NCBI GenBank assembly: GCA_963662545.2
Contig: CAXXLL010000003.1
Location: 2,880,001-2,944,000, forward strand
DNA length: 64,000 bases
Source: Gammaproteobacteria bacterium
Lineage (GTDB): Bacteria > Pseudomonadota > Gammaproteobacteria > Ga0077536
Direction: 5' to 3'
Position numbers and translations under genes: made by a program
The notes under the pieces: generated by a model
Database searches by the model: none
Seen by the model: the letters and a program-made list of their open reading frames with translations, nothing else
What the model was told of the DNA's origin: nothing
Shown: positions 43,044 through 44,608 of the stretch, in pieces
How the letters are laid out: the number at the start of each line of letters is the position of its first letter
Numbering within the stretch: the stretch's first letter is position 1

Positions 43044-44229
43044 CCATTGGGGCCGACAGATCACTGCTCTTGGCCATAGGTGCAAGCTGATCCAGCCGCT
43101 CTATGTCAAGCCATTTTCGAAGCGGCAGAAGAATGACAGTAACGATGCGGCTGCGATTATCGAGGCTGCACAGCGCCCCACCATGCGGTTCGTAGCGGTG
43201 AAGTCGGAGCAAGCGCAGGCGGATTCTATGCTGTTCCGCACTCGCGCGCTGCTTGTCCGGCAGCGTACGCAGTCGCTCAATTCACTTCGGGGCCAGCTTG
43301 CGGAATTCGGCGTGGTCGCGGCACGAGGTGTGGCGGGTGTCGCGGTGATGCGGATTGAGTTGGCAGAAGTGAAAGAGTCCTTCCTGAACAGGTCGTGTCT
43401 CTGGCCGAACTGCTGCTCGAGCAGGTTACCGCTCTCGGTGAGCAGATCGCCGGTCTTGAGAAGAAGATCCGTTCTCGGACTCGGGCATGCGAGGACATGA
43501 AGCGGCTGATGACGGTCCCCGGTATCGGACCGGTCTGTGCGATGGCGGTGCATGCCTTTGCGCCGCCGATGGAGAGCTTTGGCTGCGGGCACGACTTCGC
43601 GGCCTGGGTCGGGCTGACGCCACGGCCGCACTCGACCGCCGGCAAGCAACGGCTCGGCCGGATCACCAAGATGGGACAGCGCGACCTTCGTCAGTTGTTC
43701 GTCCTGGGCGCAACGTCGGTGCTCCGGCATAAGCGCAAGCGCGAGGAGCTGGAGGATCCCTGGTTGCGGAGGATGATCGCAGAAAAGCCGCCGAAGCTGG
43801 TCGCGGTCGCGCTAGCCAACAAGATGGCGCGCATCATCTGGGCGCTGTCGGTCAGTCAGGAAACCTACCGGGCGCCGGTCACCGCTGTTGCGGAATAGCT
43901 GCCTGGCAGAGGAAGGACCTGTTTGGAATTGGAACACCGGGCTTCGCGAACACGCTCTTGAGAACGTGATGCGCGGACAACCCAGGTTGGTGCGGTAGGG
44001 ACGAAAGACAACATAGGGGCAAAAGGTCAGAGAGACGGGGTCGGAAAAACCAGCGTTGCACGCTGGGCTGTCAAGCATACCGCTGAAGCGATTTGGATCC
44101 GATCCACGAACACCCTATGGGCCCGCGGCGCAGGCATGCCGCACTTGAGAGGCCGGACATACGACAGTACCTGACCGCATGTCACGAGTTGTTCAAATTC
44201 CTGCTTGCACTGCAGGGGGCGTCCACATA
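43044..44229 (+). mobile_element. IS110-family (IS1111-type) element, 5'-truncated and frameshifted transposase (to 43898) plus long right non-coding end
   Basis: HWGR, YVKPF...QKNDSNDAAAI, VPGIGP, AAWVGLTP.HSTAGK, VALANKMARI; end GGGGGCGTCCACATA joined to IS6 sequence. Confidence 0.88.
44030..44200 (+). ncRNA. putative bridge/seekRNA of the IS1111-type element
   Basis: Stem GGGGTCGGA..CCAG / TTGGATCCGATCC encloses TTGCACGCT (44056-44064) and CTGAAGCG (44083-44090), matching both strands of the IS6 site CTGAAGCGTGCAA; ACATACG (44157-44163) matches the element end; boundaries approximate. Confidence 0.7.
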
Positions 44230-44608
44230 CGTGCAATGAAGCACTACGGTCGGCCAAGAATCACCGTGACGGACCGCCTACGTTCCTACGTTGCCGCGAT
44301 GAAAGTCATTGGGGTCGAGGATCGTCAGCGTTGCGGTCAGTGGCTCAACAATAGAGCCGAAAATTCACACCCACCGTTCCGCCGACGAGAAGACGCGATG
44401 GCCAGGTTCAGAGACATCAAGACCCTGCAGAAGTTTGCTGCCGCCCACGCCTCCATCCACAATCATTTCAACCAGGAACGTCATCTTTACAATCGCGAGA
44501 ACTTCAAACTCAATCGCTCCGCCGCTTTGGCCGAGTGGCGTCAACTTGCAGCCTGAGAGATCTCGATTGTTGGTTCTACTGGTCAGATCAAGTTAGTCTG
44601 ACAATGTC
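44230..44608 (+). mobile_element. IS6 3' half (target of the IS1111 insertion)
   Basis: Begins CGTGCAATGAAG (RAMK), ends TCTGACAATGTC. Confidence 0.88.

Follow-up and report, generated by a model that had tools for sequence, protein, structure and literature searches.

Was the place at which an insertion sequence (IS) of the IS1111 family split an IS6-family transposase gene chosen by an RNA? The question is raised by a 64,000-nucleotide (nt) stretch of DNA from a Gammaproteobacteria bacterium (GenBank assembly GCA_963662545.2, contig CAXXLL010000003.1, positions 2,880,001 to 2,944,000 of the forward strand; the whole stretch is called the window here), in which the right end of an IS1111-family element is joined to IS6 coding sequence. 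An earlier reading of these letters (the original prediction) had taken the non-coding end of the element for a bridge/seekRNA programmed against the IS6 gene, and the element itself for one that targets and disrupts IS6. The analysis described here leads to the answer that, very probably, an IS1111 element with a seekRNA/bridge-type RNA was inserted at an IS6 transposase site specified by two guide segments of this RNA. Both guides match the site, and two such insertions were found in the genome. The copy in the window is a relic, 5'-truncated and frameshifted, so that "programmed against IS6" describes its history and not a current activity.

The IS1111 remnant and its predicted structured RNA

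The transposase remnant was identified by profile and domain searches. Model NF033542 ("IS110 family RNA-guided transposase") matched with its positions 61-171 at 43042-43359 and, in a different frame, with its positions 174-341 at 43368-43859 (141.5 and 95.4 bits for the two matches). In addition, matches to PF01548 (positions 69-152, E 2e-9) and PF02371 (positions 2-82, E 9e-22) were obtained. The combination of a DEDD (RuvC-like) N-terminal domain with the PF02371 C-terminal domain points to membership in IS1111/IS110; the first catalytic residues are not visible, about 60 N-terminal positions being deleted. The stop codon of the transposase gene (43896-43898) is followed by 333 nt of non-coding DNA up to the end of the element at 44231, and such a long non-coding region 3' of the transposase gene is a trait of IS1111. 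At the right end, the repeat GGGGGCGTCCAC comprises 12 nt, and the extension ATA places 3 bp ahead of the CG core. The relatives L012 and L014 possess 12-nt repeats at both ends, a 3-nt right extension and a 7-nt left extension counting the core. In IS1111 elements generally, the subterminal inverted repeats measure 11-13 bp, and according to PMC11187229 the terminal extensions are asymmetric, with 3 bp at the right end and 7 bp, sometimes 6, at the left end.

The non-coding end was then compared with a covariance model, R1, which was built from 44 relatives with the genome of the window excluded. R1 matched the window copy over its full length (model positions 1-155 of 155) with 121.4 bits and an E value of 1.1e-30, on the + strand only (Table 1). 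The second match in the genome, with 116.6 bits, was to the only other remnant of the element (L002), and there were no further genome matches. Thus, the assignment of the non-coding end to this type of RNA held when it was compared with a covariance model. Rfam 15, applied to 43000-44700, returned no relevant family; its best match was a spurious one to the long non-coding RNA WT1-AS_2 (E 1.1).

For the structure, 45 non-redundant sequences from the matches listed were aligned, while L040, L096 and L123, whose 5' RNA part is not homologous, were left out. Of the 27 pairs in the RNAalifold consensus for these listed matches, 16 show compensatory changes. The alignment consists of a conserved scaffold and two hypervariable blocks, i.e., the two strands of an internal loop. 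An outer stem and a CCA/UGG stem close this loop, which has a small hairpin in its middle; a second domain contains an invariant GC-rich stem. Both sides of pair 50/68 of the inter-guide hairpin were changed in 24 of the 45 sequences, again among the matches listed. In the cmsearch alignment, the window copy differs from the relatives in this hairpin by a 3-nt insertion (ATA) on the 3' side. The region therefore has the structural features of a seekRNA/bridge RNA, namely a conserved fold in which stems covary and the loops between them vary.

Both guide segments proposed in the original prediction were found in the hypervariable loop columns and not in the invariant scaffold, and all of its strings and coordinates, including those of the hairpin, the outer stem and ACATACG, proved correct on reading the sequence. 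The two segments appear to be complementary to opposite DNA strands and to overlap at the core, with the complement of the top strand first, as is the order in seekRNAs of the IS1111 type. The 9-nt match claimed for guide 1 stands with regard to the core and the right flank, which are paired as in the relatives. Beyond the core, its last 2 nt (CT) also match the AG on the left side, but the pairing observed in the relatives does not include them, and this extension of the match may be due to chance. In 20,000 mononucleotide shuffles of the 315-nt non-coding stretch, a left match of 8 nt and a right match of 7 nt, both anchored at the core, were obtained together only 3 times; thus, the agreement between guides and site exceeds chance. 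Contigs from RNA libraries cover the stretch partially and stem from related variants, and carry-over of DNA into these libraries is possible.

Guide segments and flanks in the relatives

If the loop segments are guides, they should follow the flanks of each element. Full relatives were available from plasmids, with L012 and L014 intact and L013 a frameshifted copy with flanks that do not match its own guides. Further relatives were sampled by scanning species-representative genomes with two scaffold motifs common to L012-L014, which yielded at least 112 stretches. Of the pattern matches, 51 of 118 remained unused (chance matches in GC-rich DNA, truncated contigs, or matches lacking the downstream donor 7-mer repeat). 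L002 and 18 near-duplicates were removed before flanks were counted, and right ends were located via the donor 7-mer, by which elements with a non-matching donor guide are excluded from these counts. For each target loop, exact shared runs of at least 7 nt were scored both against the flanks of its own element and against those of every other element.

Among the matches listed, 26 of 48 non-redundant elements had a loop that matched the reverse complement of their own core and right flank, as compared with 69 of 2256 mismatched element pairs (3%). On the left side, a same-strand match to flank and core was observed in 15 of the 31 listed elements with a locatable left repeat, whereas mismatched pairs matched in 14 of 930 cases (1.5%). 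Part of the matches in mismatched pairs came from related elements with a common target. In several of the relatives listed, the match to the right flank comprised only the core and 4-5 nt; the core itself is CG or TG. Thus, the guide segments covaried with the flanks of the elements that carry them.

The donor side was tested separately, with right ends defined by the repeat pattern instead of the donor 7-mer. The 7-mer after GGCCGG was identical to the 7-mer at the right end in 68 of 73 relatives among the matches listed, and five 7-mer types were represented. For the left-donor segment, own pairs scored a mean of 4.5 and mismatched pairs a mean of 4.1; left ends hardly vary, so that this comparison does not discriminate, and the left end of the window copy is absent.

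Related variants of the window element were present in public runs. In one 126-nt contig, five of the six differences from the window fell into 44055-44064, and a second variant differed at four of those guide 1 places. To judge from these contigs, the variants look like natural retargeting on a constant scaffold.

The clearly diverged elements L015, L033, L097, L134, L064 (left side) and L012/L013, from different bacteria, possess near-identical guides and a common target, (G/T)TAAGCG or GTGAGCG followed by TCCGG, which suggests that this target is a widespread conserved sequence. L015, read on the minus strand of its locus, shows a tandem duplication at the right junction, where the final 10 nt of the element (TCCACACACG) occur twice. 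In L028, L120, L121 and L026, the right flank begins with TTGCACAAAT and adjoins a conserved sequence with a hairpin of GGGATTCA and TGAATCC; no IS6 gene was found within 1.2 kb after the right flank of these four.

Two insertions in IS6 genes and the competing explanations

At the right junction in the window, the CG core (44230-31) is followed from 44232 by TGCAATGAAG of the IS6 gene. The predicted joint of CG and TGCAATG could thus be read directly, and the open reading frame 44179-44556 matched PF13610 (DDE_Tnp_IS240) only over profile positions 50-138. The uninterrupted site CTGAAGCGTGCAA, which had been reported from a paralogous IS6 gene, was present there exactly and is the sole occurrence of this 13-mer in the 5.58-Mb genome. 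At the protein level, this site corresponds to Leu-Lys-Arg-Ala, halfway along the DDE domain of one IS6 transposase subgroup, and it was to this subgroup that the element was matched. The left flank of the interrupted gene would, on the evidence of this paralogue, have had the same sequence.

Of the sole other copy in the genome, L002 (C3:2325407-2325621), a tail of 215 nt remains. It had been expected that other copies would share the flanks of the window copy, and L002 is indeed joined to an IS6 gene at CG followed by TGCAATGAAG, in the same orientation and not at an unrelated site. Its guide 1 shows one change, at the position farthest from the core. With two of two copies, a sample of two only, insertion appears to be site- and orientation-specific. 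On the left, L002 is cut by unrelated DNA that ends in the apparent 3' end of another gene (L002:1100-1493).

The two copies could also go back to a single ancestral IS6::IS1111 chimera that was duplicated, e.g., mobilized in trans within IS6, with guide matches due to coincidence or hitch-hiking. There are two copies only, both truncated and both in IS-rich DNA, as such an origin would allow. However, the IS1111 tails of L002 and the window are identical in 208 of 215 positions (96.7%), whereas the adjoining IS6 parts agree in 311 of 385 (80.8%). A duplicated chimera should diverge evenly, and since a copied one would not diverge so unevenly, two independent insertions, each into an IS6 copy that had diverged from the other beforehand, are the best reading of these alignments. 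Together with the rarity of the double guide match among the shuffles (3 of 20,000) and the covariation of these loop columns with the flanks of relatives, this makes a single chimera very unlikely.

A second alternative concerns the target. The element may prefer any CTGAAGCGTGCA-type site, with IS6 as an occasional or secondary target. A candidate is an ISNCY-family element (NF033593, 473.8 bits) present in 52 copies, at C2:53201-54547 (L139:302-1648) and in 51 other places of the genome, none of them in the window. Its transposase gene carries CTGAAGCGTGCAT, a 12/13 match to the IS1111 target in which only the position farthest from the core is off; the same Leu-Lys-Arg-Ala is encoded by the same codons, and all 52 contexts are identical. 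The relatives in which the right-flank match is limited to the core and 4-5 nt also fit such a broader target. Nevertheless, 0 of the 52 ISNCY copies is interrupted, while both known insertions lie in IS6 genes, and this alternative is given as little probability as the previous one. The weakest explanation, that the segments are scaffold or chance and that the protein alone recognizes the site, could draw on the position of guide 1 within a self-complementary stretch in the single-sequence fold and on left-donor covariation that is not demonstrable (4.5 versus 4.1), but it is hardly tenable. No columns of the alignment vary more than those of the guides, none inside the guide segments is invariant, and they match each element's own flanks; moreover, RNA dependence was demonstrated experimentally in four IS1111 members (PMC11187229) and IS621 (PMC11208160).

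Several observations weigh against guided insertion into IS6 as preferred here. With regard to the RNA, the inter-guide hairpin is weaker than that of the relatives owing to the 3-nt insertion, and the single-sequence fold is no better than that of shuffles (z -1.52). In this fold, guide 1 is sequestered in a local 7-bp hairpin, CCAGCGU/ACGCUGG (window 44050-44068). The self-complementary stretch, which is not conserved in relatives, could partly mask guide 1 if the predicted fold applies. With regard to the site, only two insertions were found, and the lost left flank is taken from the paralogous IS6 copy at 41124-41136. Among 20 uninterrupted homologous IS6-type sites in the genome, one matches in 13/13 positions, two match in 12/13 and the rest in 9-11/13. 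The uninterrupted state of all 52 ISNCY copies, which spoke against the broader target, counts here as well.

The searches for further copies add to these points. The genome contains no intact copy, only the two remnants, and no left junction. In 81 genomes of the order, nothing was found beyond matches to the IS6 flank. Among plasmid records (403 and 80 matching), the 80 matches to the RNA region were all 60-80% identical, and the guides were present in 0 of the 5 inspected. A metagenome scan with the two-guide pattern gave one match, by chance, inside an unrelated coding region. One RNA-library contig carried a right end 97% identical to that of the window, unlike the window after 44233; its flank could not be read. 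Apart from these, 100 relatives contained no intact copy with the same guides and only weak matches to the transposase gene, of 36-83 nt, in 7 genomes; the weak match L008 (genome G099) was left out of account.

Taken at its preferred reading, i.e., guided insertion into IS6, the locus would have the following history. An IS1111-family IS would have encoded a structured seekRNA/bridge-type RNA of about 155 nt 3' of its DEDD transposase. The donor-loop segment ACAUACG matches the element's own right end and the CG core, and with this RNA the transposase would have integrated the element, as a circle and in a single orientation, at CTGAAG-CG-TGCAA. Production of the RNA and its guidance of the insertion are proposed by homology with ISEc11, ISKpn4, ISPa11 and IS621. 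The insertion would split and inactivate the IS6 transposase gene, and it would have taken place at least twice in this genome, in IS6 copies already diverged. Both IS1111 copies would later have lost their left parts, the window copy at a neighboring IS6 copy and with an additional frameshift.

The traces of this decay are visible in the window. The IS6 copy at 42239-43043 marks the point of deletion of the left end. As had been stated in the original prediction, the left junction is deleted: the left end of the element occurs nowhere in the genome, and both copies lack the left part. Since the DNA 5' of 42239 is unrelated to the element and no left end is present elsewhere in the genome, the left part was deleted and not displaced. 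The contigs of a related variant in public run X5 differ in length across the frameshift stretch, and the frame break is therefore particular to the window copy.

Table 1. Positions of the IS1111 remnant, its predicted RNA and the adjoining IS6 sequences in the window.
Feature	Position	Strand	Basis
seekRNA/bridge-type RNA gene with target loop and donor loop (predicted)	44025-44181	+	covariance model R1
Outer stem, 5' strand GGGGTCGGA	44037-44045	+	columns 18-25 pair with 88-97, covariation; also in single-sequence fold
Outer stem, 3' strand TCCGATCC	44098-44105	+	consensus structure
Guide 1 TTGCACGCT	44056-44064	+	complement of top-strand core and right flank (CG TGCAA); hypervariable loop columns
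Inter-guide hairpin: GCT 44067-69, GTCA 44070-73, AGC 44074-76	44067-44076	+	columns 49-52 pair with 63-69
Guide 2 CTGAAGCG	44083-44090	+	same as top-strand left flank and core (CTGAAG CG), hence complement of bottom strand
Donor-loop conserved stem-loop GGGCCCGCGGC...GCCGC...GGCC	44119-44155	+	invariant columns, pairs 113-122/133-149
Donor guide ACATACG	44157-44163	+	equals last 5 nt of element and CG core; just 3' of invariant stem
IS1111-family element remnant	43044-44231	+	3' four-fifths kept; left ~250 nt gone, left repeat included, judged against relative L012
Transposase pseudogene	43044-43898	+	first ~60 profile positions absent; frame broken between two domain matches
Right subterminal inverted repeat GGGGGCGTCCAC 44215-26, ATA extension 44227-29, CG core 44230-31	44215-44231	+	sequence reading
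3' part of interrupted IS6 element	44232-44606	+	starts near the midpoint of the transposase gene and runs to the right inverted repeat of this IS6
IS6-family copy	42239-43043	+	right inverted repeat adjoins inside of IS1111 transposase gene; BLAST and PF13610/rve match of open reading frame 42449-42991
Uninterrupted site CTGAAGCGTGCAA in paralogous IS6 gene	41124-41136	-	NF033587, IS6 family, 155.8 bits

The original prediction called IS6 the most abundant IS of this island, which may be so; the count made here covered IS6 alone. Of the 26 IS6 BLAST segments of the genome, 10 fall inside the window, where ten IS6-family segments, full and partial and mutually 72-100% identical, lie within 26 kb (33477-59624). 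This region is a nest of IS6-driven rearrangements, in which an IS3-type orfA is cut by an IS6 copy at 41560. Elsewhere, the genome possesses two identical intact IS110-family transposase genes of another subfamily (337 amino acids, 195 bits; C2:1370869-1371768 and C3:1918637-1919536), and model R1 found no RNA near these two genes.

Relation to known systems and to IS6

The RNA-guided mechanism has been known since 2024 (Siddiquee 2024, PMC11187229; Durrant 2024, PMC11208160). In IS1111 seekRNAs, the complement of the top strand lies 5' of that of the bottom strand, with overlap at the core (PMC11187229), and the window RNA has this geometry. It agrees with IS621 in the DNA strands with which the guides pair and in the core being part of the paired positions, but is its mirror image, as the left-target guide is first in IS621 (PMC11208160). 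The window element resembles ISEc11, ISKpn4/ISPst6 and ISPa11 (PMC11187229) in its DEDD transposase, 12-nt subterminal repeat, 3-nt right extension and long 3' non-coding region, and also in segment order, core overlap and site- and orientation-specific insertion. It differs in its target, a coding site in an IS6 transposase gene, whereas the targets described for the ISEc11/ISKpn4/ISPa11 type are repetitive extragenic palindromic (REP) sequences, attC or a short linear site. With the bridge RNA of IS621/IS110 (PMC11208160) it would share target and donor loops, each with two strands pairing with opposite DNA strands, and a 2-nt core. Unlike IS621, which carries its RNA in the left end with the left-target guide leading, the window element has its RNA in the right end and the guides in the opposite order; its core is CG (TG in some relatives) instead of CT, and its subterminal repeats are long. 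The window copy is truncated and frameshifted and its RNA is predicted, and it was likened to ISEc11/ISKpn4/ISPa11 by description, not by sequence alignment.

Other IS1111/IS110-type elements reportedly target mobile elements, namely IS4321 the ends of Tn21 and IS1383 the ends of IS1384. Like these, the window element has a specific target in another mobile element, so that one transposon disables another; unlike these, which hit terminal inverted repeats, it hits the middle of a transposase reading frame. The bridge RNA of IS621 and the IS110 group is also said to be treated by Hiraizumi et al. 2024. In the literature searched, no IS1111/IS110 element targeting an IS6 transposase gene was found, although such a case could be among the target logos that PMC11187229 gives for about 300 IS in its supplements and figures. 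Thus, neither the mechanism nor insertion into other mobile elements is new in itself; the particular IS6 coding target is new as far as the searches go.

Two relatives are found near IS6 ends. L043 and L112, distant members of the scaffold family, end 35-150 nt 5' of genes for full-length IS6-family transposases (276 and 165 bits) and, by their position, appear to sit at the IS6 terminal inverted repeat. L043 (225-275, 1585-1660, 2400-2504) is inserted between GGCTCTG and TTGCAAAC, 35 nt 5' of the full transposase gene. A second, inverted copy adjoins the other end of the same IS6, and both ends of one IS6 are thus occupied. L112 (minus strand, around 3587-3540) is similar to L043 on one side. 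Such positions are reminiscent of IS4321 in the ends of Tn21 and of IS1383 in those of IS1384. The assumption that the whole group of elements with a "TTGCA" target lies in IS6 ends was rejected, as an IS6 gene was present at only 2 of 12 such right flanks among the matches listed.

The finding leaves the known mechanism unchanged, and the window copy is inactive. The set of IS1111 elements with an understood target is small, and the finding extends it by a clean natural pair of guide and target, with a CG core. As a target, a conserved coding motif of another transposon's transposase is unusual, and the insertion disables the host element. The 45-sequence alignment and model R1 define a scaffold with many natural guide variants, which could inform the design of tools based on IS1111-type recombinases.

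It is conceivable, though rather doubtful, that the lineage of this RNA scaffold is a recurrent hyperparasite of IS6 whose members retargeted their guides to different parts of IS6. If true, the multicopy, plasmid-borne IS6 would serve such a lineage as safe harbor and means of transport even as it is disabled, and the guides would turn over in step with the diversification of IS6. The window element and the relatives at IS6 ends suggest that RNA-guided IS elements repeatedly specialize on other IS elements, and such repeated specialization bears on the competition among mobile elements inside genomes.

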